This document shows, in pieces, positions 1,506-61,669 of a stretch of 64,000 nucleotides of DNA. Position 1 is the first letter of the stretch. Each line of letters begins with the position of its first letter. A model generated the notes under the pieces. It did not search any database, was not told the origin of the DNA, and saw only the letters and a list, made by a program, of their open reading frames with translations. The stretch comes from an uncultured virus (IMG/VR IMGVR_UViG_2061766007_000502). Lineage: Duplodnaviria; Heunggongvirae; Uroviricota; Caudoviricetes. Made by a program: the position numbers and the translations under genes. Location: IMG/VR virus record IMGVR_UViG_2061766007_000502; one strand, written 5' to 3'.

Positions 1506-2201
1506 ATGCAATTTACTACAACAATCAATATTAACATCAAATATTCTTATTATGCAGAAGGCACGAAGAATGCTACACTTGCTAAGGAGATTCAGAAATT
1601 CTTTATAGATAAACTTGATGTTAAGTCATGTTCTTCAATAGTACAATATAGATTTAATAATCCAGATCTTTATTACTATGTATCCGAAGATGGTGAAATG
1701 CATTCGACAAAGATAACAAAACTGCTTAGACAAGTTTTTGAAAGAAACTTCATAAAGATAAATGACATCGTCATACACAACTCACTGACTATTTCATTCA
1801 ATGATAATAGTTCTGATGTTGTAACTGAACATAATGAACAACAGAAAACAGTTAATGATGACATCATTGAGTTTTGTGACAATGATAACTCAACTGATTT
1901 GGCCAATCAAGAAGGACATGCATTTAATTATGCATTAATGGGGTTGAATAGCGGTCATCTTGTCACAAGAAAAGAGTGGTATAAAAAAGGTATATTCATC
2001 TTCAAGATGCCGAATAGAGTCATAGAGATCAGTCAATTTGACAATCCGTATCTTGAAAGTATATTCAGAACATATGACAAGCATCACATCACAGTTGAAC
2101 CGCTTATTGCTAAGAAAACTGAATTTGATACAATAGATTTGGGATATACCATATCTGAGAAAGATATACTTGCTAATGACTGGATAATTATCAGCAGATA
2201 A
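1506..2201 (+). CDS. Protein with C-terminal DUF2829/Tad2-like (Thoeris anti-defence 2-like) domain
   Basis: C-terminal ~95 aa FNYALMGLNSGHLVTRKEWYKKGIFIF...GYTISEKDILANDWIII follows the DUF2829 pattern (F..A...L..G..V.R..W...G.F....S..D.LA.DW.I). Confidence 0.7.
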   Translation: MQFTTTININIKYSYYAEGTKNATLAKEIQKFFIDKLDVKSCSSIVQYRFNNPDLYYYVSEDGEMHSTKITKLLRQVFERNFIKINDIVIHNSLTISFNDNSSDVVTEHNEQQKTVNDDIIEFCDNDNSTDLANQEGHAFNYALMGLNSGHLVTRKEWYKKGIFIFKMPNRVIEISQFDNPYLESIFRTYDKHHITVEPLIAKKTEFDTIDLGYTISEKDILANDWIIISR

Positions 2202-2205
2202 TAAG

Positions 2206-2249
2206 AACAGGATTTCCAATTATTATGTTGGAAATCCTGTTTTTTTTTT
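2206..2249 (+). terminator. Intrinsic terminator
   Basis: aacaggatttccaa / ttggaaatcctgtt inverted repeat followed by a T run. Confidence 0.8.
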
Positions 2250-2329
2250 GTAAAGTGATTTATGAAATAAACTGCATTATATTATAAGTTATGGCTGTTT
2301 TTTGTACTTAACCTATCATATAATGTGGT

Positions 2330-2851
2330 TTAAAACATCCATTTCAATTTCATATGATAGAATCGTTTGATGATTTCATTATGTCCGAATGCCCATTTGT
2401 AATCATCTATTTCTGAAACTGGTATCCATTTTATCTCTCCGACTTCATCTTTCTCATTATTCTTCTTTGAGAATTCATATTTGTCTATTGTGTCCGAAAG
2501 AATAACAAGGAATCGGTGAGAGATGTTCTGTCTTTTATCTGAACCGGGTTCATCAATCCATTCCATATCAATGAACTCACAATCTGATATATCAATACCA
2601 GTTTCTTCATATGTTTCTCTTATTGCAGCCATCTTTGTTGATTCATTGAAATCAAGATAACCACAACAACAATTCCAACATCCTACAAATTCAGGATCAG
2701 GTGTTCCCGGTCCACGTTGTGATGCAAGAACATATCTTTCATTATCTTTGTCTATGCCAAATGTCACAGCAAGGACTGCTACTGACCGGGACCACCAACC
2801 GAGGAAATTCCCGTCTTTGTCATAACATGGCTGATTCTTCAATTCTTTCAT
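2330..2851 (-). CDS. Nudix hydrolase (possible ADP-ribose pyrophosphatase)
   Basis: Nudix box GYLDFNESTKMAAIRETYEETGI; last gene of the NAD cluster. Confidence 0.85.
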   Translation of the reverse strand: MKELKNQPCYDKDGNFLGWWSRSVAVLAVTFGIDKDNERYVLASQRGPGTPDPEFVGCWNCCCGYLDFNESTKMAAIRETYEETGIDISDCEFIDMEWIDEPGSDKRQNISHRFLVILSDTIDKYEFSKKNNEKDEVGEIKWIPVSEIDDYKWAFGHNEIIKRFYHMKLKWMF

Positions 2852-2852
2852 A

Positions 2853-3620
2853 TTATATACAAGTTACACGTAATGCACAGTTGCTGTATGTTGCCATCGG
2901 CATTCTCTTGAATGATGAATTGTAGTACATGTCTTTCATCTTCTCAAGAGATTCAGGTTTAATATCATGTTCGCCTTCTCTGATCCACTTATCAAGTTCT
3001 GCATATGTGAATCCGATTTTCTCTTCATCCGGACTGCTATTCGGCAATCCGTCATCAGGTATCTTGTCAACCCATTTATCAGGCAGTTCAAGATATTTGC
3101 CGATTTGCTTGACTTCAGAGACTGTCAGGTTTCCAAGTGGAGACATATCCCCGGCAGCATCACCGAAGATAGTTTCATAGCCTATGATGTTCTCAGAGAG
3201 GTTGCAAGTATTTATTACACGACCGTTCATAGACTGTGATATAGCATAAAGCATGGTCATTCTCACTCTTGGCGGGATATTCTGCTCTGCTTGCCTTGAA
3301 ATACTGCTCAGTGCTGTATGAATGGATGCAGTAATAATTTCTATGGGAGCATAGATAGTATGTATTCCGAGATAGTCACAAATCTCATCTGCTTCATTAT
3401 AAGACTGGTTTACATCCGGCATTATGACACCGATAACTCTGTCCGGTCCCAATGCTTTAGTAAGTAATGCTGCACATATCGTGCTGTCCTTACCGCCAGA
3501 CATACCGAGAACTGCATTACAATCTTTGCCATTGCCTTCAAACCAGTTAGTTATCCACTTAATAAGTTCTTCTGTGACAAACTTAGTATTGAATCTGTAA
3601 TGAATAGGTTTGCTTAACAT
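2853..3620 (-). CDS. nadE: NH3-dependent NAD+ synthetase
   Basis: GMSGGKDS PP-loop, NIPPRVRMTMLY, GYETIFGD, DEEKIGFTY; no glutaminase domain. Confidence 0.92.
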   Translation of the reverse strand: MLSKPIHYRFNTKFVTEELIKWITNWFEGNGKDCNAVLGMSGGKDSTICAALLTKALGPDRVIGVIMPDVNQSYNEADEICDYLGIHTIYAPIEIITASIHTALSSISRQAEQNIPPRVRMTMLYAISQSMNGRVINTCNLSENIIGYETIFGDAAGDMSPLGNLTVSEVKQIGKYLELPDKWVDKIPDDGLPNSSPDEEKIGFTYAELDKWIREGEHDIKPESLEKMKDMYYNSSFKRMPMATYSNCALRVTCI

Positions 3621-3645
3621 ATAACTTCATTTTTGATTATTTGAG

Positions 3646-3736
3646 AAAAATGATAGTGACTCTTCATCCGGTTAGTCGAAATCCGAGTCACTATCAGCAT
3701 TACTTCACACTATGGCTTCTTTGTATTCAGTAATGC
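3646..3736 (-). terminator. Terminator-like hairpin plus upstream hairpin inside the NAD operon (pncB-nadE spacer)
   Basis: 12-bp stem tgatagtgactc/gagtcactatca with U-tract on the minus strand; second stem gcattact/agtaatgc. Confidence 0.55.
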
Positions 3737-3768
3737 ATTTTTATAGAGACACTTTACCGTAGTGGTTC

Positions 3769-4965
3769 TTATGCAATATGCAACTGATGTTCTGCGATTT
3801 CAAACTCTTTCTCATCACCCATATGTTTGCCAGCATCATCAGACATCTTTATCATATTCTCCCATGGATCCTTTGAAGACAGTCTGCATATCTCCGGTTT
3901 CATTACGACATTGGGCGCCTTGAAGTCCGGTATTCCAGGATCACATGTTATATCAGTTCCTATACCGAAGCCTCTCTTTGTCTTGTTATCGAAGAAATCC
4001 ATTATCTTATGTGCCTTATAGACATTAAGAGAATTTGAGAAAACTATGAGCTTTGTCTTCGGATCAATACCGAACTCTTTGAGTCTTTTTATAATCTTCT
4101 GACCGACTTCATATTCATTGCCTGAGTCTTGTCTGAAACCTGACAGAAGCAGTGCCTGCTGACGTGTCAGAGTCCTGAGAAATGAATCTGTTGTGTATGT
4201 ATCTATGAGTGCTGTTCCCAGATTGCCCTGATAAACTTTAATCCAGTCTTCAAGTGCAAGGTAATTCGCACGTTTGTAACCGAAGCATGCACCATGAAAC
4301 ATTATCCACTCATGAGCCATTGTTCCGGTCGGAATCATATCATATTTCATTGCAAAATACACATTAGAAGTGCTCTTGCATGTTTGAGACTCAATCTTTA
4401 TAAGACTTATACACTGCTCATGTGCTTCCGCACTGTATCTGCGGCGTGTGCCGAAATCAGAGAAAGGAACATTGAAAGAATTAGCATAGTGAATCTTCTT
4501 ATGGAGAATGTTCAGCATCTCCTCAGAATCATACTTATACTCATTGAATTGGTTGAGTATGAAGTTTCTTATCTCAGAGTATATTGCAAGTACAGGGATC
4601 TCATACAGTGTTGCTTTATAGAAAGTATCTTCAACTGTACATTGGAACACTCCGTCTTCATCAAACCAGAATTTTATCTTAGCCGGATTATATCTGAATG
4701 TACTGAGCCATTCCCAATACGGAGCAGGAATGTATGGTATGTTTTCAATACACCATTGCATTTCTTCTTCAGAAAGGAATAGTTCATGCAATTCATTGAT
4801 ATGCTTGTTGAACAGTTCAACAAGCATTTCTTTCTTTTCACCGGACCAACATTCTCTGTTACGGTCTGTAAACTTAAATCTGACTTCAGCAAGAGGATAG
4901 AGGCTGAAGTATGCATACGACATTGAGAACTTGTATAAGTCTGTGTCAAGTATTGATAGCATCAT
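3769..4965 (-). CDS. pncB: Nicotinate phosphoribosyltransferase
   Basis: SILDTDLYKFSM, DFGTRRR, GTMAHEW, DTY, RQDSG, GFGIGT motifs. Confidence 0.93.
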   Translation of the reverse strand: MMLSILDTDLYKFSMSYAYFSLYPLAEVRFKFTDRNRECWSGEKKEMLVELFNKHINELHELFLSEEEMQWCIENIPYIPAPYWEWLSTFRYNPAKIKFWFDEDGVFQCTVEDTFYKATLYEIPVLAIYSEIRNFILNQFNEYKYDSEEMLNILHKKIHYANSFNVPFSDFGTRRRYSAEAHEQCISLIKIESQTCKSTSNVYFAMKYDMIPTGTMAHEWIMFHGACFGYKRANYLALEDWIKVYQGNLGTALIDTYTTDSFLRTLTRQQALLLSGFRQDSGNEYEVGQKIIKRLKEFGIDPKTKLIVFSNSLNVYKAHKIMDFFDNKTKRGFGIGTDITCDPGIPDFKAPNVVMKPEICRLSSKDPWENMIKMSDDAGKHMGDEKEFEIAEHQLHIA

Positions 4966-5470
4966 ATATATTATTTTTTAAGATGAACTTATTCACAGAA
5001 GGAGTCAGGAACGGCATTGCAGTCTCATTGTTCTTGAGTTTCTCTCTTATTTCTGTAGATGAAATATCTATCTTTGAACGATCCACTTTGAATGTCTTGC
5101 AAGTGTCAAGTATGTATTCGGATTCATCCCATTCGCTGATTTCATTCATGATATCTGTTCCGCCGATTATCGTGTATTGGACATCTGACATCACATATTC
5201 ATAGAGATACTTAATCAACTGGTATGTGTATTTCGGCTGAATCATATATTCCATATCAAGGGATATTATACGTTTGTCACCGAGGTCCTGTACCATAAGT
5301 TCCACCATATTGTGCCTGAACAGATACGGTGAACTCTTTTTCTTCCATGGATTCTGCCATGCTGTAATAAACCAGACTGCATCTACTTGCTCAAGTGCCT
5401 TTATGGCTGCATATGCATGTCCGATGTGTGGCGGGTCGAATGAACCCAACATTAAACCGATTTCAGTCAT
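4946..5470 (-). CDS. nadD: Nicotinate-nucleotide adenylyltransferase
   Basis: GSFDPPHIGH, NPWK, IIGGTD, ISSTEIR; ATG at 5470 preferred over TTG at 5506. Confidence 0.9.
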   Translation of the reverse strand: MTEIGLMLGSFDPPHIGHAYAAIKALEQVDAVWFITAWQNPWKKKSSPYLFRHNMVELMVQDLGDKRIISLDMEYMIQPKYTYQLIKYLYEYVMSDVQYTIIGGTDIMNEISEWDESEYILDTCKTFKVDRSKIDISSTEIREKLKNNETAMPFLTPSVNKFILKNNIYDAINT

Positions 5471-6068
5471 TAGTGTTTTCTGTATTGTATTTTTCTTTAA
5501 AGTCAAATTTTTCTCCTATGAAAGACATACCATCATAGAATGGCTCGACATTGAAGCCGTGATTACGGAGATTCTTGTATGTCTGATAAACACAGTAGTC
5601 ACCAGCCAGTCCACATATGACATAATCATCTGTCAAAAATGCATCTATACAATCATCTTCTAAATAATTATATAATTCAACAAAGCCTTTTTCATTCGTA
5701 TATTCTTTCTTTTTCTCGAATGCACCATACTCTTCATGGTCTGAGCATGTACCTTTTTTAAAAATAAAATATCCAATATCGTTCTTAATGAGCGTATTCA
5801 TTATTTCATTGTTTATTGATGCTCCGTCAGAATCCATAAGACAATGTACAGGCCACTGACCGCCATTCTTTGCAAATGACTTGTCTTCTGGTGTATGCCA
5901 GTCCACAGTAAATATACATTCCTTTATTTCATTGTGATTATTCTCAATGTAACTGAGGATATTCTTTAGCGCATCCTCTGCTCCGGGAACATACAATGAA
6001 CCTTCAGTTTTATGGTAGAAATCCTTTTGGAAATCTACTATAATAAGTACTTTGTTTTTGTCTTCCAT
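5463..6068 (-). CDS. pncA: Nicotinamidase (isochorismatase family)
   Basis: IIVDFQKDF, GSLYVPGA, DWH, WPVHC, KG, GLAGDYCV catalytic motifs. Confidence 0.9.
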   Translation of the reverse strand: MEDKNKVLIIVDFQKDFYHKTEGSLYVPGAEDALKNILSYIENNHNEIKECIFTVDWHTPEDKSFAKNGGQWPVHCLMDSDGASINNEIMNTLIKNDIGYFIFKKGTCSDHEEYGAFEKKKEYTNEKGFVELYNYLEDDCIDAFLTDDYVICGLAGDYCVYQTYKNLRNHGFNVEPFYDGMSFIGEKFDFKEKYNTENTND

Positions 6069-9883: not shown

Positions 9884-10576
9884 ATGATAGCGAATGGTAA
9901 ACTATATGGTGTTCTGAATGGCAGTTTAACTGAACAGCAGAAACTGAACTCAGCAGAACTGCACAGACTGTCTGACAATCTGAAGCAATTCAGTGATGAT
10001 TGTCAGAAGAATCATATGTTCAAAGCATTCGATATGACTGATGATTATTCCGTCCGTATTATAACAGAACGTCCGGAAGATACATTGACTATTGCAGTTA
10101 TGTACAGGATGTGGATAAGAAAACAGACACCTGAAGATAATGCATATATGTATGATATGAAGTTCTCTATCGGCATCGGAGAAGCCAATGCCAATTATAG
10201 TGACATAATGATGATGTCTGGCTGTGCATTCATATTCTCTAAATGGGAATATGACAATATGAAATTCGGTGAGAAAATCAGAATTGGAACATGTTTTTCA
10301 GATTCTGATAACCATTATCTTGATCTTTTCGCTAAATGTATGTCTGGGATAGTCAGCACTATGTCAAAAAGACAGTCAAGCATCTGTTATGAAATGCTTG
10401 CTGTTGATAATGTCAAGACAGATAATGTTATAGAAAGAGTGTATGCAAAAAACAATAGAATGACACGCTATATGAAATCAATTCCCATAAAACTTATACG
10501 GAAGACATTACAGCACTATGCTGACAAAATTTTAAATTTGACGTCTTCAATAGATATAAATAGAGAGTTGGTATAA
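9884..10576 (+). CDS. Hypothetical protein, possibly SatD-like
   Basis: DMKFSIGIGE...SGCAF segment resembles the SatD family. Confidence 0.45.
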   Translation: MIANGKLYGVLNGSLTEQQKLNSAELHRLSDNLKQFSDDCQKNHMFKAFDMTDDYSVRIITERPEDTLTIAVMYRMWIRKQTPEDNAYMYDMKFSIGIGEANANYSDIMMMSGCAFIFSKWEYDNMKFGEKIRIGTCFSDSDNHYLDLFAKCMSGIVSTMSKRQSSICYEMLAVDNVKTDNVIERVYAKNNRMTRYMKSIPIKLIRKTLQHYADKILNLTSSIDINRELV

Positions 10577-10745
10577 TAACATAAACATAAAAATGCCATT
10601 AGAACTGTATAAATCAAAATACAAATCTAATGGCANNNNNNNNNNNNNNNNNNNNNNNNNNNNNNNNNNNNNNNNNNNNNNNNNNNNNNNNNNNNNNNNN
10701 NNNNNNNNNNNNNNNNNNNNNNNNNNNNNNNNNNNNNNNNNNNNN

Positions 10746-11011
10746 TTGAGTTTATCTTTATATGGATAATAATCAACAGCAGAAAGCCTTACAATACGTT
10801 TCAGAATAGGTCTTTCATTCTGATGCTGACAATCCGTATTCCATGAATAATCTAATCTGTTTCCAGAACAGTATAGATTGTGCTTCTTACAATACACCTA
10901 CTTCATTTTCTACCGGATTGCTTTATTAGTAATATGATTATCCTTATCTATTCTATTTTGAATCATGCCTTTGTTATCTTTACAAACATACTTGTGTATA
11001 AAAACAGTCAT
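10746..11011 (-). CDS. Hypothetical protein downstream of the mini-array (3' end in N gap)
   Basis: Open from ATG 11011 (or 10966) with two in-frame TAGs into MYCKKHNLYC...; runs into Ns. Confidence 0.4.
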
Positions 11012-11023
11012 GAAACTTGATAC

Positions 11024-11115
11024 ATCTACTAAATGTAGAAAATGTTAGTTATAACAAAATCAGCACAGCTTTTAGTCGATTATCTACTAAAAATAGAAAT
11101 TGATGATTTACAGAC
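11024..11115 (-). CRISPR. Degenerate type V-A mini-array: 2 repeats, one ~26-nt spacer plus a possible trailing guide
   Basis: Repeat 1 GTCTGTAAATCATCAATTTCTATTTTTAGTAGAT (11082-11115); repeat 2 GTTATAACTAACATTTTCTACATTTAGTAGAT (11024-11055). Both end in the Cas12a handle (A/T)TTTCTAY-loop-GTAGAT. Spacer AATCGACTAAAAGCTGTGCTGATTTT. Confidence 0.8.
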
Positions 11116-11159
11116 AGTTGCCTGTGCAATATGTGATTATACCACACAAGCAACTGTCT
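11112..11159 (-). other. 15-bp hairpin between the cas12a stop and repeat 1
   Basis: agacagttgcctgtg / cacaagcaactgtct (one G-U on the minus strand). Confidence 0.7.
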
Positions 11160-11167: not shown

Positions 11168-14100
11168 TTACTTAGAATAAGGCTTGCTCTGCACAAACTT
11201 GAACCAGTCCTCATCCTTGATGTATTCAAGATAACCCTTATCATTGACAGGGAAGTCATTGTGGAGCCAGTACAGACCCTTAATCGCGATGTTGTATGCA
11301 TCATTAGCATCAGCATCCATAATACCCATACTGTTGTTAGTTCCTGTAATGAATGGATTCTCAGAAGCAACTGGAGAAATGTCAAAGCCGACATTATCAC
11401 CATTATAGTTCCTCATCTTCAGCATACACTTGAAGATGTTCCACAGCTCAACCAGTTTGCTTTCATCAAGCTCAGAAACTGTCTTTACAGACACGTCAGT
11501 GTATTGAATACCAACCTTATCGAAGAAGTTGCAGAACAGACCAGTCAGAACCTCAAGACGTTTATTCTTGCCGTAATTTCTCATTCCATGTGAAGACAGA
11601 GTCCACACATTAGTGTAGTCATTGCGGATTGTCTTGAAGTTGCGGTAGTCAAACGTGAAGTAGAACATACTATTTTTGTATGTAATTTCATTGAATGAGC
11701 CGAAGAACTTCTGCAGACTCTCAGCAGGCTTCTTCATATTGAACAGGTTCACGAAGCCGGTTGAAGGATCCATCATTGATGTATATGCAGCAGGAACATA
11801 GAATATCCAACCGTTCTGCTTGCCAAGTTCGTTGAAATTAGCCGGAGCAGTCAACTGCAATCCATCACGGACAGTTCCGCAAGTTTCGTTTGCGTTTCTC
11901 TTGAACACCAGGTAGTTCAGTTTGTCCATTAGCATTTTCTCGAAGTTCTGGTACACCTGACGCTCAATCTTATAGCGTCCACGCTTGAACTCGCTGTCGA
12001 GATTCTCCATAATCACAATCGCATTGTAGCGGAATATGAGAGATGAAATCTCGTGGACTACCTGAGAAAGATAACCGTTCTTCAGGTCTTTAATCTTCTC
12101 AATCGTAGTCCAGTTCTTCCTTGCCTCGTCACGGTTCTTCTCGACTTGCTTCATCTTCTCCATATAGTTATAGTTCCCGATCAGGTTATAACTACGCGGA
12201 GTAATGATGTTCTTACCGTGCTGATCGATTACAGATACATAGATGAGGTTGTTCTCACCACGGTCAATACCGATGATGTTGATGTCTCTCTTGTTAGCGC
12301 GGAAATTGTCAAGAACACTTTTGTTGAACTGATATAGTGACGGTGTTTCAGCTGCTACATTGTAGTTGATGACAATAGGTACATGGAAGAAGAACTTGTT
12401 CTCATAGTATCGTCTGTTCTTGACGATTTCATGTTTAGCCTTCCTTGTCTTGAGTTTAGGAAGAAGTTCTTTTTCTTTGTCAGTCAGTTGAATGTCTGCA
12501 CCATTGAGGAACAACATCAATCTCTTGTAGAGAGTACCTTCAATCGGAGTGCCGTCAGCAAATGTCTTGTTGACAAGAGTAGAACCCTTTCTGTGCTTGT
12601 AAGGTTTCTCTTCGGTTATAGCTTCCCTGAAGAAGAACTTGACACCCTGACTTGAGAGTTTATATACCGGATTCTTCATATTCTCTTCTGAGAACAGTTC
12701 TTTCCAGTATAGTGTATGAAGGTTCGGAGTTCCGTACGAACCGCTGTTGAAATCCTTGTTAGTGATGTTGAATAACAACATCTTGTTTTCATTTTGTAGG
12801 GTATATAGATACTCGAACGAAATTGGTCTCAACGACACAGCATAGCAGATAGTCTGGGTGTGGTCGCAGAATTCCTTGATTGACTTGTACTCGGAACTAT
12901 CCTTCCACAAAGACCTGAAATTCTCACTGAACATAGAGAAAGAACTGTGCTTTGACAGACCGACCTTCAAGTAGTCAATCATCTTTCTTGTGAAATCCGG
13001 ATATTTCTTGTTGAACTCCTTGAGTTTAGCGGCACCGCTGATGCCTCTCTTCTCATTGTACATATCACTGATAGTCTCGATAGGCAGATTGTACTCAGTC
13101 ACAGCAGGAGCAAGCTTAGTGCCTTTGGAGTAGAAGAACAAACGAGACAAGTTCTTGAAATCAGTCTTCTGTTGCTTAGACTCCACAAGACTCGCTGTGT
13201 TGCCGGCATACAGTCTTTCTGTATCTACATTGCTAATCTTGTCGATGTACATAGCAAGATAGTACTTACCATCTTTGATGATAATGCTACAGTCATTCCA
13301 GCCGTTGGCACGGGTTGGAGAGTCAAACTTCAGCTCAATCTTACCACCGTTAGACAACTTACGTGTCAGGTAATTACGGACCTTGTTATATAGAGGGATT
13401 ATCTGTGTGATGGTGAGCTCATCTTCAGACTCAAAAAGAGCATTATATGCAACATAGAAATCGTCTTTGTCAAGAGAATCCATCTTCTTGTTGAGACGCA
13501 ACAGATTGACAACGTTAAACAACTCAATATAATTGTCAAGGACTGTCTTTATGATCTCTTTGGCACTATCATCCTTGATAGACACATTGCCTGACTTATA
13601 CCCATTCATCAGTTCTTTGAACTGAATAATACGGGCATTATTACATATGTCAATGTATGATTTGTCAGACCATGTCTTAGTCTCAGAATCACATTTGTGA
13701 GCGACAAGACGACCTAACACATCCAACAGAGTCACAGAAGACTGAATCTCCTTTGATATTTCATATGATGCTTTTTGAGTTTGAGCCACAGAGAAGCACT
13801 TCTTGGCAAGCCAAGAATCTATTTTCTCGTCAATTTCAGCCTGACCCTTCTTAGTCTTGCTGTTCACTGTCATAGCACGGAGTTTCTCACCAAGTGCATT
13901 CCAGTTTGAACCACCGTACATCATAGCAGATAACTTGGTCAAGTTAGTGCCTTGAATGTAAACCTTTTCGAGATTGACAGTACCGTCAAGAAGACTGCCC
14001 ATAGTCTCTTTAATGCGCGTCATCAGTTTGGATGACTCAACTTCATCAAGAAATGATGATATGCTCTGCATCAATTCATCATCAGACCCAAACTGTTCCG

Positions 14101-15076
14101 GAATGAAAGACAAACGAACTCTGTCACTCAGGATCTGTTTGAATAGTTGAGTCATCTTCAGGTTACGAAGTTTGTAATTTGTATCTGGATGACTCTGAAT
14201 GTACTCATTGCCGATACTGTTGATACCTATGACGTTCTCATTAGGATTGCCGCCGATAATCCAGTTATACACTTCAATGCCCTGCTGAGAGATACAATTG
14301 TTGTAATACTCCGGCTTGAATACATCATCAAGAGTCTTACCATTTAGTTGTGCCTGAAGAGAATTCTCAGCAATTTTCAGTTCATCCGGACAGATCTCCT
14401 TGAGTTTCTCATACACCTTGATGTTATCTAAGAACTTTGGGAAGTTCTCGTTCACTACTCTGTTGGCAATAGATGTTGTCTTATCCTCATGAGAATACAT
14501 ATTCATCCTGTTGTCTTTGTAAATATCAAAGAATGCAGAGAAATTAGCAAATGAATCAATTGCTTCCAACATGTCTTCTCTGGTGGCATTCATCTTCGGA
14601 TTACTATTCTGGACAGTCTCAATGAAGTTGTTTTCATTGTTCTCCACCATATACCTTATCTGCTCTGAGATAAGATTCTTGAACTCAGCTGACATATACT
14701 TCCACCAAACATGAGACTCAAATGACTTACGGATAGACTTTCGCATTTCTTCCTGAAGAGTCTTGTAGTCGTCTGATTTGTTGATGTATGCTTCAGCAAT
14801 CTGCTGCCAAGTGACAACAGTTTCGCTAAATTGAGAAAGCACTCGACTGATGAATATCTTATGCCACTGATCAAGCATTGCCTTCATCAGAGGGTATTTC
14901 TCATGTCTGCCGTCGTCAGACATATACAGTTTATGAAGTCTATCATCTTCATTGCCGTTAATATAACGGTTCCAGAAATCTTCTGTCGTCTCACCGGACT
15001 TCAGCATCGGTTTGAGCTCAAACCTCAAGGTCTTAGAAATTTGATAAAGACCTGTAAAATTTTCTACATTACGCAT
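11168..15076 (-). CDS. cas12a: Type V-A CRISPR effector Cas12a (Cpf1), 1302 aa
   Basis: SKTLRFELKP, ENFPKFLDN, LFKQILSDR, LYNKVRNYLT, PNLHTLYW; RuvC-I IIGIDRGE, RuvC-II IMENL, RuvC-III DADAN; Nuc LKMRN. Confidence 0.95.
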   Translation of the reverse strand: MRNVENFTGLYQISKTLRFELKPMLKSGETTEDFWNRYINGNEDDRLHKLYMSDDGRHEKYPLMKAMLDQWHKIFISRVLSQFSETVVTWQQIAEAYINKSDDYKTLQEEMRKSIRKSFESHVWWKYMSAEFKNLISEQIRYMVENNENNFIETVQNSNPKMNATREDMLEAIDSFANFSAFFDIYKDNRMNMYSHEDKTTSIANRVVNENFPKFLDNIKVYEKLKEICPDELKIAENSLQAQLNGKTLDDVFKPEYYNNCISQQGIEVYNWIIGGNPNENVIGINSIGNEYIQSHPDTNYKLRNLKMTQLFKQILSDRVRLSFIPEQFGSDDELMQSISSFLDEVESSKLMTRIKETMGSLLDGTVNLEKVYIQGTNLTKLSAMMYGGSNWNALGEKLRAMTVNSKTKKGQAEIDEKIDSWLAKKCFSVAQTQKASYEISKEIQSSVTLLDVLGRLVAHKCDSETKTWSDKSYIDICNNARIIQFKELMNGYKSGNVSIKDDSAKEIIKTVLDNYIELFNVVNLLRLNKKMDSLDKDDFYVAYNALFESEDELTITQIIPLYNKVRNYLTRKLSNGGKIELKFDSPTRANGWNDCSIIIKDGKYYLAMYIDKISNVDTERLYAGNTASLVESKQQKTDFKNLSRLFFYSKGTKLAPAVTEYNLPIETISDMYNEKRGISGAAKLKEFNKKYPDFTRKMIDYLKVGLSKHSSFSMFSENFRSLWKDSSEYKSIKEFCDHTQTICYAVSLRPISFEYLYTLQNENKMLLFNITNKDFNSGSYGTPNLHTLYWKELFSEENMKNPVYKLSSQGVKFFFREAITEEKPYKHRKGSTLVNKTFADGTPIEGTLYKRLMLFLNGADIQLTDKEKELLPKLKTRKAKHEIVKNRRYYENKFFFHVPIVINYNVAAETPSLYQFNKSVLDNFRANKRDINIIGIDRGENNLIYVSVIDQHGKNIITPRSYNLIGNYNYMEKMKQVEKNRDEARKNWTTIEKIKDLKNGYLSQVVHEISSLIFRYNAIVIMENLDSEFKRGRYKIERQVYQNFEKMLMDKLNYLVFKRNANETCGTVRDGLQLTAPANFNELGKQNGWIFYVPAAYTSMMDPSTGFVNLFNMKKPAESLQKFFGSFNEITYKNSMFYFTFDYRNFKTIRNDYTNVWTLSSHGMRNYGKNKRLEVLTGLFCNFFDKVGIQYTDVSVKTVSELDESKLVELWNIFKCMLKMRNYNGDNVGFDISPVASENPFITGTNNSMGIMDADANDAYNIAIKGLYWLHNDFPVNDKGYLEYIKDEDWFKFVQSKPYSK

Positions 15077-15252
15077 ACTGTTTAACTGTTTTTAATTGTT
15101 TATATAATAAATTATTTTAAGTATTTCTTTATAGGTGGAANNNNNNNNNNNNNNNNNNNNNNNNNNNNNNNNNNNNNNNNNNNNNNNNNNNNNNNNNNNN
15201 NNNNNNNNNNNNNNNNNNNNNNNNNNNNNNAATAAAAATTAAGGTTATAACT

Positions 15253-18200
15253 ATGGGTTTAATTTATACTAATCCACAAAAATTCAATTCAGGTATTCAT
15301 TTAAATGGTGCTACACCTTTGGATGACAGACTCCAGATAAATGACATTTCAGATATTTACATCAGCAATACTACAACCGGAACTGCCGGTTGTGCTATTT
15401 ACGGTATGGCTTATGATGGTATGGTTATATCTGTGGTTGATCCGAATCACGATCACTCTAAAGATGTAATTCTCATACAGTTGAAAGATGCGACTCCGTA
15501 CAAATACGGTTCTCCTGGTGAAGTTAATGAAAATAACTACACTGAGTACTGGACTGTATCTATTAGCGGTGATGTGTCATTCGACACAAGCGTGATTGAT
15601 GCAAGCATCCATAATATTCAGACTGAAATTGCTTAGATTAAACAAAAGAACATCAGTCAGGATTCAAGTCTGAATACATTTGACTCAAGTATTCGTGACT
15701 TATATAACAAACCAGAAATACAAGCATCCCCTGTATATTAGAAAGATGGACAGAGTGGCTATGTTCTCGGTGATATAAATGATGCTCCGGGGGAAAATGC
15801 TTTTGCAGAAGGTTATGGAACAAATGCATCCGGTTTTTATTCTCATGCTGAGGGAGAAGATACAACTGCATCCGGTGACTATTCTCATGCTGAAGGTTAT
15901 AGTACAAATACATCTGGTAATTACGGTTCTCATGCAGAAGGTTAGAGTACAATTGCATCCGGCAACAGTGCTCATGCTGAAGGTCATAATACAATTGCAT
16001 CCGGCAACAGTGCTCATGCTGAAGGTGGTTCGGAATAGACAATGATTTTAGTTAAAAAAAATTACATTGCTGGTGATAATGAGATTTTTGTAGAAAGTGA
16101 TGTTCCAAAAAAAGCATTATTAACATATAATAATGAATATGCTGTTGTAGAATATAGTGGATATGATTCAGAACAACAAGCATATCTATTAGATTTACAA
16201 ACATCATTTTCATTTGATATTAATGCTAATATGCGAATAGCAATGTATAAAACTGCAAGTGGTTAGTATTCTCATATAGAAGGTTATAATACACATGCAT
16301 CCGGTGATTAGTCTCATGCTGAAGGTGACGGTACAACTGCATCTGGTGAATCATCTCATGCAGAAGGTTAGAGTACAATTGCATCTGGTGAGTCATCTCA
16401 TACAGAAGGTTAGAGTACAATTGCATCTGGTAACTGTTCTCATACAGAAGGTATTGATACTATTGCATATGGTATAGCATCTCATGTTGAAGGAGAAATG
16501 ATAGCAGCAGCTGGTAGGGGTTCTCATGCTGAAGGGGGTCAATCTTATTCATCTGATAGTAAATTCACTCTTACAAAAGATTATCAAGGTAGTAATAGCA
16601 TTTATGTTGAATATAATAGTATTTTTGGAGAAACTACTGAAGGTGATCTAAAATTGCTGTTAAAATATAATAATGAATATGTTCTTACAACAAGTTATTA
16701 TTATGATGAAGATGAACAATCATATGTATTAATCATGGATGGTTATTTATCTTCTGAAAATGAAATTCCTACTGGTACAGAAATTAATTATATTGAAAGT
16801 GGTGCTTTTGGTGATTATTCTCATTCAGAAGGTTATAGTAATGCATCTGGTGAATATTCTCATGCAGAAGGATATTGGACAATTGCATCTGGTGAACGAT
16901 CTCATGCTGAAGGTAGCAGTACAACTGCATCTGGTAATTACGGTTCTCATGCAGAAGGTGATCAAACAATTGCATCTGGTGAATCATCTCATGCTGAAGG
17001 TTTAAATAGTACAGCATCTGGTTAGGCAGCTCATGCAGAAGGATTTGATACAAAAGCAACTGGTGAAATGTCTCATGCTGAAGGTTTAAATAATACAGCA
17101 TCTGGTTAGGCAACTCATGCAGAAGGCTATGGTTCTATTGCAGTTGGTGACTATTCTCATACAGAAGGTAAAGCATTAGCAGTTGGTGAATATTCTCATG
17201 CAGAAGGAATATGTGACTCACATGATGAATTGATTTTAACACAAGCATATAGACAAGGTGCTACAACTTTATATGTTGATAGAAATGATGTTTCTATTGG
17301 TACACCTATTAATTATGATAATGAATATCGAGTAGTTGAAGAGTCTGGTGAAGGTTATATAGAATTAAATGAAGGTTTTTCTTTTGATATACAAATCAGA
17401 GGAAAAGTTTATATATATGGTGGTGCAGGTGGCAAGTATTCACATTCTGAGGGAGAAAATTGTACTGCTGCCGGTGATTATTCTCATGCTGAAGGAACCA
17501 GTGTGACTGCTTTAGGATATGCTGCTCATGCAGAGGGTGGTGCTACAACTGCATTTGGTGATTAGTCTCATGCAGAAGGTGAAAGCACAACTGCATCTGG
17601 CACCAGTGCTCATGCAGAAGGTGGCAATACAACTGCATCTGGAGAATCATCTCATGCAGAAGGTGGCAGTACAACTGCATCTGGAGAATCATCTCATGCT
17701 GAAGGTGAAAGTACAACTGCATCTGGTGAAGCATCTCATGCAGAAGGTTATGATACATCTGCAATGAGTAATTATTCTCATGCTGAAGGATATAGCACAC
17801 AAACTACTAATGAAGCAGAACATGCATCTGGTAAGTACAACAAATCAACATCAGGAAAGACTCGGTTCTCAGTTGGCATCGGCACAGCAACCAACAAGAG
17901 AAAGAATGCATTTGAGATTACTATTGATGGTAGTGTATATATTAATGATATCGGCGGATATAACGGAACAAATGTCACATCAGCAAAGAATATTCAAAAT
18001 GTAGTAAAGACTATCAACTCTTCTGTCAATACACTTGATGCAAGTGTAAGAGATTTGTATATCAACGGCAGTAGTAGTGGCGGTTCCGGTAANNNNNNNN
18101 NNNNNNTAGAGTGGTTATGTTCTTGGTGATTCAAATGATGCTCCGGGAGAAAATGCTTTTGCATATGGTTATTATACAAATGCAGACGGTGACTATTCTC

Positions 18201-20749
18201 ACGCTGAAGGTTAGTATACAACAGCATCTGGTGAAAATTCTCATGCAGAAGGCTATGAAACTCGTACAGGTGGTGACTATTCTCATGCAGATGGTTATTA
18301 TACATATACTAGCAATGTTGGAGAACACGCATGTGGTAAATGTAATTATTCAACAAGCGGAAAAACTCAATTTTCTGTTGGTATCGGCACAGATCAATTT
18401 TATGACCGCAAAAATGCATTGGAGATTACTGATGATGGTAAAGTGTTCATCTATGATATTGGTAATTATAACGGAAGAAATATCGATGATGCATCTTCTT
18501 TACAAGATATTATTTCCGGTGGCGGTAGTAGTTCCGGTGGCGACGGTTATATATCATACACAGAGTATAAAGGATATATTCTCGGTGATAGTGGTAACAC
18601 AGCAGAAGGATAGGATTCTTTTGCTGAAGGAAATCAAACATCAGCAGGAGGTGACTATTCTCATGCAGAAGGATAGTCTACAATAGCATCCAGTTACTAT
18701 TCTCATGCAGAAGGATATTCCACAATTGCTAATAGTACCAGCGCTCATGCCGAAGGATATTCTACAATAGCAGGAGGTGACTATTCTCATGCCGAAGGTA
18801 TTAACTCATCAACAAGTGCTGATAGTGCTCATGCAGAGGGATATTATACATCTGCGTTTGGCAACTATTCTCACACAGAAGGATATTATACAACTGCATC
18901 TGATGAAGCAGCTCATGCAGAAGGTGATTATACAACAGCATCTGGTTATGCATCTCATGCAGAGGGTTAGTATACAAATGCAACTGGCGAGTCATCTCAT
19001 TCTGAAGGTTTGAATACAAATGCATCAGGTGCATATTCTCATGCAGAAGGTGAATATACTCAAACAACTAATGAAGCAGAACATGCATCAGGAATGTATA
19101 ATAATTCAACAGAAGACTTGACACAATTCTCAGTTGGTATCGGTACTGATGACGATGACCGCAAAAATGCATTTGAGATTACCAATGATGGTAAAGTATT
19201 CATCTATGATATTGGTAATTATGACGGTACTAATGTCGATGATGCATCTTCTTTACAAGATATTATTTCCGGCAGTGGCAGTGGCAGTGGTGATGGTGGT
19301 TATATAATATATAATGAAGATGAAGGATATGCTATTGGTGGTAATACTGCAACAGGAGAAGATTCATTTGCAGTAGGTTATAATACAACAGCATCCGGTC
19401 GAAATTCTCATGCTGAGGGTGCTATAACAACAGCATCTGGTGTTTATTCTCATGCTGAGGGTTATTAGACAACAGCATCTGGTGAATAGTCTCATGCTGA
19501 GGGTTCGGTAACAAATGCAACTGGTCAATCATCTCATACTGAAGGCACCAATACAACTGCATCAAAATGGTGTGCTCATGCTGAGGGTTATTAGACAACA
19601 GCATCTGGTGAATATTCTCATGCTGAAGGATAGAATACAATTACAACAGGTTATGTTACTCATGCAGAAGGTATAGATACATCAGCATTAGGACAATATT
19701 CTCATGCTGAAGGCAAGAGCACAATAGCAAATTTAAATAGTCATGCAGAAGGTTATCAGACTCAAGCAATGAATTATTCTCATGCAGAAGGTTATTAGAC
19801 ATTTGCATTCACAAAATCACATTCTGAAGGACAAAATACTTTTGCTATAAAAACATCACATGCAGAAGGAAATGGTACTGTTGCTTTATATAATCAATCA
19901 CATGCAGAGGGATATGGTAAGTTTTCAGGAACAAATGTAATTGAAATTACAAATGTTTCCGGAGAATATGAAGAACAAAAAACCATTACAACTGACACTG
20001 CTCTTAAAGTAGGAGATTTGATAATACAATATATAGATCCTCAAAATCAAGAATATAATTATAATCATTCAATACAATAGTATGATTTTGATGAAGGATG
20101 TTATGAAGTTGAAGAATTGCTAAATCAATCTGGTACAATTGTAAAACTTTCGGGTTTGTCAAAATATACTTCGATAAAAATAGGAAAATGTTATAAATTT
20201 ACACCTTCAGATGGCGGTGCTTTTGCAAATAATGCACATTCAGAAGGTTACCAAACTGTTGCAAATGGTTATGCATCTCATTCTGAAGGTGAGTATTCAA
20301 CTGCATCCGGTCAAAATTCTCATGCAGAAGGACATACTACAACTGCATCTGGAAGTTATGCTCATTCCGAAGGTGAGGTTACAACTGCATCTGGTAATTA
20401 CAGTTCTCATGCAGAAGGTCATCGGACAACTGCAGATGGTGAGTATGGTGCTCATGCAGAAGGATATTATACAACTGCATCTGGTGAATCTTCACATGCA
20501 GAAGGTAAAAATACTCAAACAACTAATGAAGCAGAACATGCATGTGGTAAATACAATTTATCTACTTTAAATCAAACATTATTTTCAATAGGTAACGGTA
20601 CATCTCCAACAACACGAAAGAATACTATTGAGGTTGATAAGAACGGAAATGTATATATTCAAGGTATAGGTGGTTATAATGGTAAAAATGCAACAGACAG
20701 TAGTAGTCTATAGGAAATAATTGACTTTTTAATGAGTCAGCATAGCTAA
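15253..20749 (+). CDS. Long SHAEG-repeat fibre/adhesin (YadA-head/Hep_Hag-like beta-roll), many in-frame TAGs
   Basis: Dozens of 14-aa (T)TASGxxSHAEG repeats in blocks capped by FSVGIG...RKNAFEIT..G.V.I modules. Continuous with TAG=Q except for a one-base frame offset across the N run at 18093-18106. Confidence 0.8.
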
Positions 20750-22326: not shown

Positions 22327-23382
22327 ATGATAACACATCATTATATACATACTGGCAACTCAATGGATATGGATCATATTCAGAGCAACTCTGTTTAGTT
22401 GGTTGTGACATCTCCGCCCTATCCTATGGTTCAGATGTGGGATGACATTTTTGCATCTCAAAATCCACTGATAGCAGATTTCCTGAGTGATGGAGAATCA
22501 GCAATCATATTCCAGATGATGCATCAGATGCTCGATGATGTGTGGAGAGAATGTTTTCGCGTTCTACAACCGGGCGGGTTTCTGTGCATCAACATAGGGG
22601 ATGCAACAAGAACAGTGAACGGAAAGTTCTCATTATTCACTAACCACACCAGAATCACGGCTGCCTGTATAAAGATGGGGTTCACATGTCTTCCTGAGAT
22701 ATTATGGAGAAAGCAGACAAATGCACCGAACAAGTTTATGGGAAGCGGTATGCTTCCTTGCGGCGCATACATCACTCTTGAACACGAACACATACTTATA
22801 TTCAGAAAGGGAGATAAGCGTGAATACAAAACCGATGACGAAAAACTGATTAGAGCAAAGAGTGCATACTTTTGGGAAAAAAGAAATATCTGGTTTTCCG
22901 ACCTTTGGGATGTCAAGGGGACAAAGTAGGATATAAGCACAGACACAAGAGACAGGAATGCAGCATATCCAGTTGAGATACCATATCGACTGATTCAGAT
23001 GTTCTCTCAGAAAGAGGATACAATATTAGACCCATTCTTGGGGACAGGCAGTACAACAGTTGCCGCTGTGATGACGGGCAGAAATTCCCACGGATATGAC
23101 ATTGATTCGGAATTCTGCAAACTCGCACATAACAGAGTTATGGAACTCGACTGTGATATTTGCAGACAAGTAGTCAATAAGCATCTGAACGACCACATCA
23201 ATTTCATCGAAGAAAGGGAAAAGTCGGGAAAAAAAGTAAAATACTATAACAAGAATCTTGATTGCAAGGTTATGACTAAACAGGAAACTGAGATTGAGTT
23301 AGATTATCCTGTATCAATAAAAACAATCAATGATGTAATAGAAGTTGAGCTTCATTTGTTAAAAAATACTAATTTATTCTGA
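22327..23382 (+). CDS. Beta-class N4-cytosine/N6-adenine DNA methyltransferase
   Basis: VTSPPY catalytic motif, then [12 protein letters not shown] motif; the two track ORFs join in frame via TAGs at 22396 and 22927. Confidence 0.88.
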
Positions 23383-31158: not shown

Positions 31159-33417
31159 ATGGCAACAGGAAGTAATAAGACACCGCTGATTCGTCCGTTG
31201 AGAAAGAACGGAGCAACTTTATATGTCTTTCCATCTGCATCAGAGGATATAGGACTAAACATAAACAGCAATTCAAACGGAGTTGCTCTCTCACATTATG
31301 CATTGCTGAATTTCACTAAGAAGAATTTCAAGTTTTCCGATGTCAAGGCACTTGCAAAAGACTTACAGAACTATGCAATGAACTTTGAGACTGCTCTTAT
31401 CAATGAACCTACATATAATTATCAGGAAACGAGAACTGTTACGGAAGGTGTGTTCTGGCACTGGATTATGAAGAACCAGTATAACACGGCAGATAAATTC
31501 TCGATGAATGAAATATCTGGAATTGACAATGTATATAGAGAGAGTAAGTTCAGACCGACAGACCAGAACAGGCTTGTGCAGTGTTTCGGTGCGATTGATG
31601 CAGGAAATTCACTATCTACTGAGTTCGGTATGTTCAATGAGACTTATGTGAATATCCCGACAAGTTACGGTAACGGTCCTGTATTCTTCAGGAGAATCGG
31701 TGACAATCAGAACTTGAGAGCAGGTGTTTCATATCCGACGACTCAATCAAGCGACTCATTTATTCAGAACAGAAATAATACGGACAAGGGTTATCTCGGA
31801 AGCATAAATGCCGTTTATGATGATAATTCTCTAAAGTGTTATAAATCAGATGATGGATATTATGAGATTGTAAAAGACATCCCTACTATCAAGAATGCTA
31901 TTGACACAGTCGGCGGTGCCGGTTACGATGTCAATATAACTTCATTCGACTCAATCAATATAGATCATGACAGACAGTTTGCCGGCACAGTGTACGACTT
32001 TACTGCAAATAACCTGAAATGTGAGTTCAACTTCAATGCAATCCTGCTGTATTATTCTATCTATGATATGAATGATATGTATAAGCAGCCGATTGCTACT
32101 AATATGTTCGGTATCGTATTCCTTGACGGCGGAGGCGAGGCAGTCGCAGTCGATAACTACATAATGAATCCGTATAAGAAAAAGAAGTCATACAGTTCTG
32201 AGAGTACCAATGACAATTCTTATTTCGGAAACAGTTTCTCATTCAGGATTAATATCAAGACACTTTCTGTATATGATAATACAGATGCTAAGATAGATGA
32301 TAATACCACAATGACAAGTGCATATGCACAGGATTTCAATGATGTTGTTGCTAATCTCAACAGAGCAATAGACGTCATGAACACTAATGTGCATACCACC
32401 ATGGCTATACAGGATAAGTACATTGAAATACGTCAGTACTATATAGAGCAGAAAGAGAAATATGAATTGCTGAAGAAAGAGATTGAATAGTATAATAAGG
32501 AGTTATTTGACAATTCATACAAAGAACTTGAACAGAGTATTGATGAGAAGTTTATTAGCATCCAGCAATATATTGACGAAAAACTGAATATTCCTACGAC
32601 TGATGACGGAACATACAGTTCAGACGGAAATGAATACCTCGGCGCTTCAAACAGAACTATTTCAAGAGTTCCATATGGCATAGAGCAGTCATATGATGCT
32701 AATACGGAGCCGAATAGCAGTGTTATTATGGGTGCATTACACGGAACTGCTGATGAATATAATGATTCATCGGATTCTCTGATAGGAATGAGAGTTACAT
32801 TGAGTTCCGGCACTTCTGTGGATATTAATGCTAATAATGACATTAACATCAACGGCAGTAACGTGAAGTTCAATCTCAGAGATGAAGACAGTACGGTTTC
32901 CACTGTCAGTGTTATTGAGATTATCGAGAAAATGGTTTCTCTTCAGAATGAGATTGATGCACTGAAAAGCGGTACTCAGCCGGCTATGAGAAGCATGTCG
33001 AAATCAGGATTACAGGTTGAAGACACAGGTCTTACTTTCTCAGATGACGAGTATGACGAGTCTAAGTTTACTGTTTCCGACAATACAGCAGAGACACAAG
33101 ACAATACTCCAGATGAGCCTAAGAATGATATAAATTCAGATTATATTCAGAACTTGTTTGTTTCTGTCGGTATAATCCTTATAAAAGGCATTCTTGCTCC
33201 AAGGGCGAAGAAACCGGAAGAAGCAGGATATTACCTGAAGCAGAATACAGCAGGCAATATACAGAACTATGTATTCTTCAATGGCAATGATTATACAGAT
33301 ACAATGAAGTGTGAATCAGGAAAGATGTATTCAGTGAACGGACTGATATATGCTTTCAATGGTGAGACATGTGAACTATTAGGTTCCCAAAAATTAACAT
33401 AGAGCAGTAATGAGTAA
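31159..33417 (+). CDS. Putative virion structural protein (TAG readthrough)
   Basis: 31159..32490 and 32728..33402 are in frame and separated only by TAG; true stop TAA at 33415. Confidence 0.7.
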
Positions 33418-36400: not shown

Positions 36401-37408
36401 ACACTCAACGGAGAAGTACATGCAGTGATTGCAGGTAATGATATCAATTGTGTTAATTTGTACGGAACTGATGGTGAGTTTAATACCATGACAGCAGACA
36501 AGTATAAGACAAAGGGTACTGTATTTGCTCCTGAACTTGCTAACGGCGGCGGTTATTGTGAAGCAGTGTTTGATACACTGACGCTTAACCTTCAAACACG
36601 CGGTAAGACAGATATCGGTATTCTGATTGAAAGCCAGTATGAGGAGTTGGTAGAGGAGATAAGAGAAATTGATTCCAAGTTCGATTCAAAACTCTCAGAC
36701 GATGCGTATCTTACTGTCGGAGTGCTTGGCGTTAACGAGATGAGGTCTCCGAAGATTGTAATCGGCACTAATAAATATTCTGCTACTGAGTATGTGGGTG
36801 CACATGCAGAGTTGGCATTCTCTAATATTGGTAATGTACAAGCACTTACCTGTAATAATACTCCAATATTTGCTGAAGATTTCATGGTATAGGATGAGGA
36901 TTCAGGTCAGTTATATAGTATGAAGAGTAATATCTTAGATATAAACAATACTCTCGGCTTCATACATAAAGAAGAAGTAGCAACTCATAAGTATAACTAT
37001 ATTATCGGTGAAGTATTAGATGAACATGGTGAATATATTACTTCAGACAACAATAAGGTAGTAATCAAGAATGCATCAATAATTGATAGTGATGCTACAT
37101 TTAATACAATCAAGATACCGGAAGGAACTTCAGGATTGTCATTTATCAATGATGCTGGTGTACCAACGGCTAGTATCAGTAAAGGTCGTACCGGTAAGTT
37201 GACAATTGAAGGTGACGTTAATATCATCAATGGTAAGTTGTTTATTGATAGTAGCACTATGCATATTGACAATTTCTCTTCAAATAGGATTAAGATATCC
37301 AGTTATAATCTAATGGATATGCTACAAAACATTCAAAGTAAAATTAATCAAATAATAGCTGCCGGTAAAAGCGGAAGCANNNNNNNNNNNNNNNNNNNNA
37401 TATATTAA
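33410..37408 (+). CDS. Large putative structural protein (~1330 aa, TAG readthrough)
   Basis: Five same-frame track ORFs, the first four ending in TAG; coiled-coil segments; short N run near the 3' end. Confidence 0.7.
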
Positions 37409-37532
37409 TATGAACATGATAAAAAGAGGGATAGAGATATCTCTCTTTTTATTTTTTCTTTCCGGAACGTGCATTTTTTTAATTTTAAAAATAAATACAT
37501 TAAAGTATTATTTTGGTAATTACAACTATCAG

Positions 37533-42755: not shown

Positions 42756-42757
42756 AA

Positions 42758-43789: not shown

Positions 43790-43805
43790 TTTATTTTTTT
43801 GCATT

Positions 43806-61386: not shown

Positions 61387-61389
61387 CAA

Positions 61390-61644: not shown

Positions 61645-61669
61645 AGTTGTTTCCGTTTCTTCAAAAATT

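Follow-up and report, generated by a model that had tools for sequence, protein, structure and literature searches.

We analyzed a 64,000-nucleotide (nt) stretch of DNA (hereafter, the window) from an uncultured Caudoviricetes virus, IMG/VR record IMGVR_UViG_2061766007_000502, whose gene content identifies it as a Lak-like, TAG-recoded Prevotella megaphage of the rumen. On its minus strand we identified what appears to be a stripped-down type V-A CRISPR unit, made up of cas12a and a mini-array of 2 repeats; the readable DNA shows no adaptation genes. This unit is probably a counter-defense tool. As far as the sequence can tell, the phage Cas12a could well act early in infection by binding or weakly cutting host defense operons, mainly as a binding-type protein, and we put this reading forward tentatively. 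A mainly binding role is favored by published data on equivalent mutants, a short and imperfectly matching guide, and the strand geometry of the candidate targets, whereas an intact catalytic triad, purifying selection, and a convergent lineage favor a nuclease whose pocket changes are compensated.

The Cas12a gene and its RuvC/Nuc pocket

The predicted product of 11168–15076 is a complete Cas12a, the effector of type V-A systems. All 5 Pfam Cas12a models (REC1, REC2, PI, RuvC, and Nuc) matched above cut-off, solved Cas12a chains in the PDB matched with E values of 1e-177 to 1e-116, and the protein has the REC1, REC2, WED, PI, and RuvC + Nuc architecture of Cas12a. An AlphaFold model of residues 560–1302 had a mean pLDDT (predicted local distance difference test) of 80.6, and a fold search with this model recovered Cas12a chains exclusively among the PDB matches listed (ranks 1–50). 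Residue numbers were transferred by HMMER alignment to FnCas12a (Fn) chains and verified at D917, E1006, R1218, and D1255, with AsCas12a (As) and LbCas12a (Lb) equivalents added below, and motif positions were reread from the DNA of the window. The gene and its motifs are as follows:

11168–15076, minus strand: cas12a, a single stop-free open reading frame (ORF) of 1302 amino acids (aa) with no in-frame TAG
12251–12268, minus strand: RuvC-I motif IDRGEN, with catalytic D938 present and N942 at the Fn R921 (As R912) position
11972–12010, minus strand: RuvC-II segment MENLDSEFKRGRY, with catalytic E1024 present, the lid hinge altered, and the lid core FKRGR retained
11765–11785, minus strand: YTSMMDP, with M1101 at the Fn K1084 (As K1072, Lb K1003) position and M1102 at an Ile position
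11369–11416, minus strand: Nuc segment MRNYNGDNVGFDISPV, with R1222 present, Y1224 at Fn S1220, and G1230 at Fn D1227
11294–11317, minus strand: RuvC-III motif DADANDAY, with catalytic D1256 present and D1259 at an invariant Gly (Fn G1258)
12416–12595, minus strand: pre-CRISPR RNA (pre-crRNA) RNase residues H828, K837, and K886 intact, with the adjacent D887 position changed to N
13277–13318, minus strand: WED-II segment PTRANGWNDCSIII, in which the Lys-bearing loop (Fn K613/As K548 position) is gone
13142–13156, minus strand: PI motif KNLSR, with K641 at the Fn K667 position and R645 at the Fn K671 (As K607) position

A preliminary description of this DNA, made by eye, had reported an intact catalytic D/E/D triad and Nuc Arg within a pocket whose motifs read DRGEN, TSMMD, GFDISPV, and ANDAY, and all of these readings were borne out. 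D938, E1024, D1256, and R1222 align with Fn D917, E1006, D1255, and R1218, and the loss of RuvC catalytic residues that marks nuclease-dead type V effectors was not seen. Changes additional to those already described comprise D887N, L975M, I1050M, and the lid hinge, where LEDLNFGF has become MENLDSEF (Fn D1007N, N1009D, F1010S, G1011E, and F1017Y). The pocket changes remove the equivalents of FnCas12a R921, K1084, and D1227. Altogether, 5 conserved Lys/Arg positions are lost (K906, R942, K1012, K1082, and K1101), and the only Lys/Arg gained at conserved pocket columns are E955K and N1036K, the latter at a position that is already Lys in Fn.

Across a homolog alignment of 121 sequences, the RuvC/Nuc changes were confined to 3 (P0001, P0002, and P0003; 87–99% mutual identity), all of them phage-type. 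At 147 columns with at least 93% conservation in the 118 others, these 3 sequences deviate identically at 9 and retain 138, while the other sequences deviate at a median of 1 and a maximum of 11. The N942 column is occupied by Arg in 114 and Lys in 4 of the 118 other homologs, and by Arg in 154 and Lys in 2 of 156 ORFs taken from loci; among 150 cluster representatives at 50% identity, we counted 136 R, 10 K, 1 N, 1 T, 1 H, and 1 sequence without the motif.

The stem branch of this lineage is long (0.65 changes/site against 0.07–0.14 in sister lineages). Its per-domain identity ratios resemble those of comparator pairs; a RuvC-specific speed-up was therefore rejected, and the acceleration concerns the whole protein, with changes at conserved columns modestly enriched in RuvC-I/II (20/105 vs 28/302, Fisher p 0.013). 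At least 38 single-nucleotide polymorphisms (SNPs) fall inside cas12a in 4 other runs, those listed being 25 synonymous and 13 nonsynonymous, alongside 186 further differences; within codons 1096–1279 the SNPs listed are 15 synonymous and 5 nonsynonymous. Of all domains, RuvC has diverged least between P0001 and P0003 (93% identity). Judged from these substitution patterns, the lineage is still under purifying selection.

The long stem branch, together with an array reduced to 2 degenerate repeats and adaptation genes missing from the readable window, would suit a passenger gene in decay, taken up from a Prevotellaceae host and drifting to loss with the mini-array as a leftover. We regard such decay as very improbable: the 1302-codon frame is intact, the SNPs listed are mainly synonymous, and the 9 shared deviations are identical in all 3 sequences despite P0003 being only 87% identical, with the remaining conserved columns kept. 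Moreover, the cas12a stretch is present in bovine gut metagenome runs from 13 studies, of which 2 rows may be the source sample itself.

Guide 1 and the leader genes of defense operons

A mini-array starts straight after the cas12a stop codon, on the same strand, with 2 repeats enclosing guide 1:

11082–11117, minus strand: repeat-like element 1, whose 3' handle AAUUUCUAUUUUUAGUAGAU has a potential 5-bp stem (one G-U pair) and a 5-nt loop
11060–11081, minus strand: guide 1, 22 nt, reading in frame as NRLKAVL
11024–11059, minus strand: repeat-like element 2, with handle AUUUUCUACAUUUAGUAGAU
11000–11023, minus strand: guide-like sequence 2, trailing, with no repeat behind it

Both repeat-like elements contain the UCUAC-loop-GUAGAU handle, and their predicted folds resemble that of the repeat of L082, a bacterial Cas12a locus; no third repeat was found elsewhere in the window. 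The pre-crRNA RNase site of FnCas12a (H843, K852, and K869) is preserved as H828, K837, and K886, so the phage Cas12a retains a predicted crRNA-processing site and its own guides should be made. In the readable DNA of the window, cas1, cas2, and cas4 were not found, and the masked N runs (18 runs of 10–634 nt each, within 6091–56245) could conceal short elements. The unit thus lacks the cas4-cas1-cas2 genes and multispacer array of a complete type V-A locus. In 2 other runs, 174 nt located 3' of the array (10776–10951) are swapped for 27 different letters, and the ORF at 10547–11011 is therefore not conserved; these same 2 runs also lack one T in the repeat 1 loop, at 11089.

We searched for guide 1 in 401 genomes of the family of the Prevotellaceae metagenome-assembled genome (MAG) that carries L082. 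With a TTTV protospacer adjacent motif (PAM) plus 20 nt and up to 3 mismatches, 14 matches were identified in 12 of the 401 genomes, and none with the reversed control. Ten of the 14 lie at codons 5–11 of a gene for a 67–75-aa XRE helix-turn-helix (HTH) protein, 7 of these 10 with a TTTG or TTTA PAM. The N-terminus of this HTH family reads M..(L/I)NR(L/I)K(V/A)VL, to which the in-frame reading of guide 1 is a near-consensus. The hit statistics show support for this candidate target family at the sequence level. The remaining 4 PAM + 20-nt matches, one of them G179, fall outside the HTH family and were set aside.

Of the 101 genomes sampled for the HTH family, 62 contained it, with a maximum of 7 matches per genome. 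Among 30 loci, 29 have a predicted gene next after the HTH gene, the gap between the two ranging from −26 to +172 nt. The Pfam scan covered 26 of these 29 genes (3 ORFs of 107–119 aa were omitted) plus that of locus L173, giving 27, of which 24 had a match, almost all to restriction, methylase, BREX, or other defense families. These included HsdM (3), HsdR (3), Eco57I/MmeI-like proteins (2), other DNA methylases (4), BrxA, Mrr, SNF2/ResIII proteins (3, two of them with nSTAND3), NACHT, an AAA_11 helicase, Schlafen/AlbA_2, a YhcG nuclease, and WYL proteins (3). In G163, the HTH gene is followed by genes for a 1548-aa zinc-ribbon ATPase, an AAA protein, and a WYL-WCX protein. The XRE HTH gene may be a common controller or leader of defense cassettes in this family.

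As an observation on these loci, the leader stands in front of types I and II restriction-modification, BREX, Mrr, STAND, and WYL operons (L172, 9136–16944; L176–L205). The guide 1 protospacer lies on the sense strand, and a crRNA made from it would therefore pair with the template strand near the operon start. A review reports that dCas12a represses most effectively when directed at the template strand close to where transcription begins (PMC8053165).

No member of the XRE HTH family is encoded in the window, and guide searches within the window (up to 3 mismatches, seeds of 12–18 nt) returned self-matches only. The exact 22-mer of guide 1 is absent from IMG/VR, GenBank phages contain only chance-level partial matches to guide 1 and none to guide 2, and a guide 1 24-mer searched without a PAM at up to 3 mismatches was found in 0 of 401 genomes. 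Matches of guide 2 10-mers to one homologous site in distant cas12a genes lack a PAM and were judged to be chance.

The similarity of the phage protein and handles to those of bacterial loci also fits a decoy, in which the phage Cas12a, in effect a protein anti-CRISPR, would counter host type V-A systems by loading host crRNAs and, without cutting, either occupying phage protospacers or titrating guides. Loci of the host family encode Cas12a proteins 49–60% identical to it and a handle, AAUUUCUACUAUUCGUAGAU, similar to those of the phage; cleavage should be poor given the pocket changes, and phage RNAs that compete for Cas12a are described in a preprint (bioRxiv 10.1101/2024.10.29.618823). We nevertheless consider a decoy improbable. 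The unit comes with guides of its own, and the target family found for guide 1 is coherent and unrelated to CRISPR. Among 1446 spacers from 110 arrays compared with the window, none gave a convincing match: the single hit, from locus L019 (22313–22332, 19/20), is not significant given 1446 tried.

Proposed binding and possible cutting at the predicted targets

Two of the lost pocket residues have been mutated in FnCas12a. R921 positions the phosphate adjoining the scissile bond; R921A shows no nicking, no linearization, and no trans cleavage, R921K keeps cis and loses trans cleavage, and a positive charge is reported to be indispensable at this position (PMC13691569). K1084A is reported to leave trans cleavage near undetectable and to lower cis cleavage 1.3–1.8 fold (PMC12784958). 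Their AsCas12a counterparts, R912 and K1072, are described as part of a network gripping the nontarget strand (bioRxiv 10.1101/2023.03.13.532460), and a list of mutants located in or close to the active site includes D1227 (PMC8136826). The engineered FnCas12a forms (R921A or R921K, and K1084A) thus hit the same 2 positions as the phage protein, in which the charge is lost; the phage form differs from them in being natural, in carrying about 8 further changes, in having been fixed under selection, and in having Asn instead of Ala. The suggestion in the preliminary description that activity is weakened, in a way compatible with RNA-guided binding or repression, is plausible on sequence grounds, because N942 and M1101 stand at positions whose Ala mutants in Fn lose cleavage altogether and trans cleavage, respectively, and because the guide geometry suits dCas12a-type repression.

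The mechanism we envisage begins with the phage deploying the Cas12a–guide complex early in infection against host defense operons, a timing suggested by the absence of TAG codons from cas12a and its neighborhood. The pocket changes would have removed 2 basic residues that hold DNA phosphates together with a conserved Nuc aspartate, and collateral cleavage, probably also target cleavage, would therefore drop sharply. The main role of the complex would then be that of an RNA-guided roadblock, sitting on the template strand where the operon begins, and imperfect guide matches might allow several operons to be blocked at once. The full form of this proposal, a naturally muted Cas12a that serves as a programmable repressor and silences many defense operons early in infection with one near-consensus guide, is possible, although we would not rely on it.

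With the same targets, the phage Cas12a might instead be a fully competent nuclease in which coupled changes (Arg to Asn, Gly to Asp, and Asp to Gly plus an Asp gained 2 positions further along) restore the hold on the phosphate in another way, for example through an extra metal ion, and which cuts host DNA at defense loci or cuts rival mobile elements carrying the same leader gene. We take this to be a real but doubtful possibility, and several observations that speak for it weigh at the same time against a mainly binding role. The retained triad and Nuc Arg, with the lid core FKRGR, and the purifying selection on RuvC, including the SNP counts in codons 1096–1279, form the pattern of a working nuclease. 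A protein from an unrelated Cas12a lineage, P0190, only 40% identical, is altered at the same 4 positions (DRGEN, YTEQID, D1227N, and G1258S) with its triad retained, and a fragment, P0257, pairs His at the Arg position with Asp at the Gly position. The 4 pocket sites appear to co-vary, and such coupled, recurrent changes suggest an alternative, selected pocket that is possibly still catalytic. The R921 position is reported as Asn in 2 of 91 Cas12a sequences and as Lys in 29% (PMC13691569), and R921A is an Ala mutant of another ortholog, from which Asn may differ in behavior. Deletion of LbCas12a G930, which aligns with phage Cas12a E1029, is reported to leave wild-type activity, while many other lid changes yield nickases (PMC13635745), and effectors of huge phages mostly keep their catalytic residues (PMC7162821). 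On the other side stand the dead R921A mutant, the gain of only 2 Lys/Arg residues against the loss of 5, and a guide that is short (22 nt) and matches the known relatives imperfectly.

The guide data also temper the idea of a repressor aimed at defense operons. The genomes with guide 1 targets belong to a family that may not be the phage's host family. The best match found was 18/20, with no perfect target and both mismatches at third codon positions, and the PAM plus a 13-nt seed of guide 1 occurred in only 2 of 301 genomes. For guide 2 no target was found, its PAM + 13 nt occurring in 0 of 301 genomes (1 match for the reversed control). N runs also mask the likely cas12a promoter (15141–15230) and 110 nt 3' of the array (10636–10745).

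The PAM-reading module, known systems, and phage context

The preliminary description had noted that the WED segment lost about 7 aa, including the As K548 equivalent, and that the PI motif reads KNLSR, and had taken these features to indicate an altered or relaxed PAM. The 2 sequence readings hold: 6–7 residues are absent directly after GW in HMMER alignments to FnCas12a and ReChb chains, the absent stretch spans the Fn K613 (As K548) position by our own count in the 5ng6/5mga alignment, and KNLSR was reread at its place in the PI domain. At Fn K671 (As K607), which reads the PAM, the phage protein has a conservative replacement, R645. The WED gap and an N-x-(P/S)-R-L-F PI motif are common to 30 clade members, down to about 50% identity, and among the 121 aligned sequences the gap also occurs in P0041 and P0066. 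Bacterial loci with the deleted-loop module (L002, L004, L027, and L082) have canonical RuvC motifs and arrays of about 7–34 repeats, and L004 has cas4-cas1-cas2 all present. The WED/PI changes are thus shared with the 30 relatives, whereas the RuvC/Nuc changes are private to the 3 sequences.

In the tree, every deleted-loop protein pairs with a loop-bearing one. Ten such pairs are mostly about 85–100% identical in REC, RuvC, and Nuc (P0020/P0046, 78–93%), but only 35–58% identical in WED-II and 22–28% in PI, and the deletion therefore belongs to an alternative PAM-reading cassette moved by recombination. The pairs are rumen Prevotellaceae Cas12a (proteins P0004–P0046; loci L002–L008, L027, and L082), and the alternatives are a loop-deleted WED with an Arg-type PI and a loop-bearing WED whose accompanying D-I-P-N-L PI has no PI lysine. 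By this comparison, the WED-loop deletion is an older feature, separate from the pocket changes, in an exchangeable PAM-reading module that still goes with TTTV.

For the PAM itself, 5 spacers from 3 deleted-loop loci were searched against IMG/VR, a small sample. For L082 (GWNDCSIVI), 2 of the 3 spacers tried had full-length protospacers, 30/30 and 29/29, both flanked by 5'-TTTG; this T-rich 5' PAM is read from a relative and not from the phage protein. No informative protospacers were found among 161 Cas12a loci or in GenBank phages. An altered PAM is not supported, because the module is widely shared and the L082 protospacers, few as they are, are flanked by TTTG; the candidate targets of guide 1 likewise mostly have TTTG or TTTA.

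Compared with canonical Cas12a (Fn, As, and Lb), the phage protein shares the domain order, the RuvC D/E/D residues, the Nuc Arg, the RNase H/K/K residues, and a handle with a 5-bp stem; a T-rich 5' PAM is seen in a relative with the same WED/PI module. Unlike canonical Cas12a, it has lost the Lys-bearing WED loop and has Arg at the PI lysine position, lacks the equivalents of Fn R921, K1084, and D1227, has Asp at the invariant Gly and an altered lid hinge, and is phage-borne without cas4, cas1, or cas2. Cas12k, Cas12c, and Cas12m are naturally noncutting type V effectors of other subtypes, Cas12k having lost catalytic residues. The phage Cas12a would resemble these 3 in RNA-guided DNA binding that blocks transcription, but unlike Cas12k it has an intact triad. 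The phage ICP1, in work credited to Seed et al. in 2013, reportedly carries a type I-F system with adaptation genes that cuts and is aimed at a host anti-phage element, whereas the phage unit described here is type V-A and has no adaptation genes.

Huge phages carry CRISPR-Cas systems usually without Cas1, Cas2, or Cas4 and with compact arrays, according to PMC7162821. The unit conforms to this pattern, being encoded in a phage genome, without acquisition genes, and with a short, compact array; the word Cas12a is absent from the text of that paper. The crRNA-like phage RNAs named Cracr are described as leaving host Cas12a bound without cutting and as aimed at the cas12a promoter (bioRxiv 10.1101/2024.10.29.618823). 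Like them, the mini-array is a phage-borne degenerate repeat with a short guide that partially matches a host 5' region next to a TTTV PAM, and the proposed outcome, binding without cutting, is anti-defense. Unlike Cracr RNAs, which use the host's Cas12a, the phage brings its own effector, and its guide corresponds to the beginning of the coding sequence in leader genes of restriction and other defense operons; no seed + PAM match of the guides was found in any region of 161 Cas12a loci.

Our literature searches turned up no account of a phage-encoded Cas12a or a nuclease-deficient one, of Cas12a in Lak phages, or of a phage Cas12a with a changed pocket or a guide against defense-operon leader genes. 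If the proposed function is true, phages would have a self-supplied RNA-guided effector against a shared control gene of many host defense systems, counter-defense would extend beyond small anti-CRISPR proteins and hijacking RNAs, and natural CRISPR interference would serve as a broad anti-defense weapon. The 4 coupled positions, changed together in at least 2 lineages, offer a natural experiment for the design of cis-only, nickase, and binding-only Cas12a. The WED/PI exchange shows that PAM-reading parts are traded among near-identical rumen Cas12a proteins, which is relevant to PAM engineering and phage arms races.

Relatives of the phage Cas12a were found by tblastn in 0 of 50,697 GenBank phage records; in IMG/VR, no close relative was found with a single-protein query, and an alignment query recovered one, at 33% identity. 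The window encodes a portal protein, 62% identical to the Prevotella phage Lak portal, as well as a baseplate wedge protein, a DNA methyltransferase, a Tad2-like protein, and long repeat-rich fiber-like proteins. Large late or structural genes (15253–20749, 31159–48191, and 56389–63954) are open only with TAG read as an amino acid, with 1–12 in-frame TAG codons each, and no in-frame TAG occurs in cas12a or in the genes at 1506–6068. Such a pattern agrees with a recoded megaphage of the Lak type whose early genes keep the standard code. Contigs from RNA libraries (2 runs) cover 23 of 30 bins, which is no proof of transcription.

About 5 kb from cas12a, 1506–6068 encodes a Tad2-like domain protein, NUDIX, NAD synthase, nicotinate phosphoribosyltransferase, a cytidylyltransferase-like nucleotidyltransferase, and an isochorismatase-type protein; by their annotations, these genes look like a counter-defense-type cluster resembling an NAD-replenishing set. 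Across a masked intergenic stretch, and diverging from cas12a, 15253–18129 and 18077–20749 encode 2 very long proteins, probably fibers, which consist of SHAEG-type repeats of 42 nt (14 aa), weakly resemble the YadA head, and match a PHROG without known function. The phage DNA methyltransferase gene lies at 22327–23382 and has 2 in-frame TAG codons.

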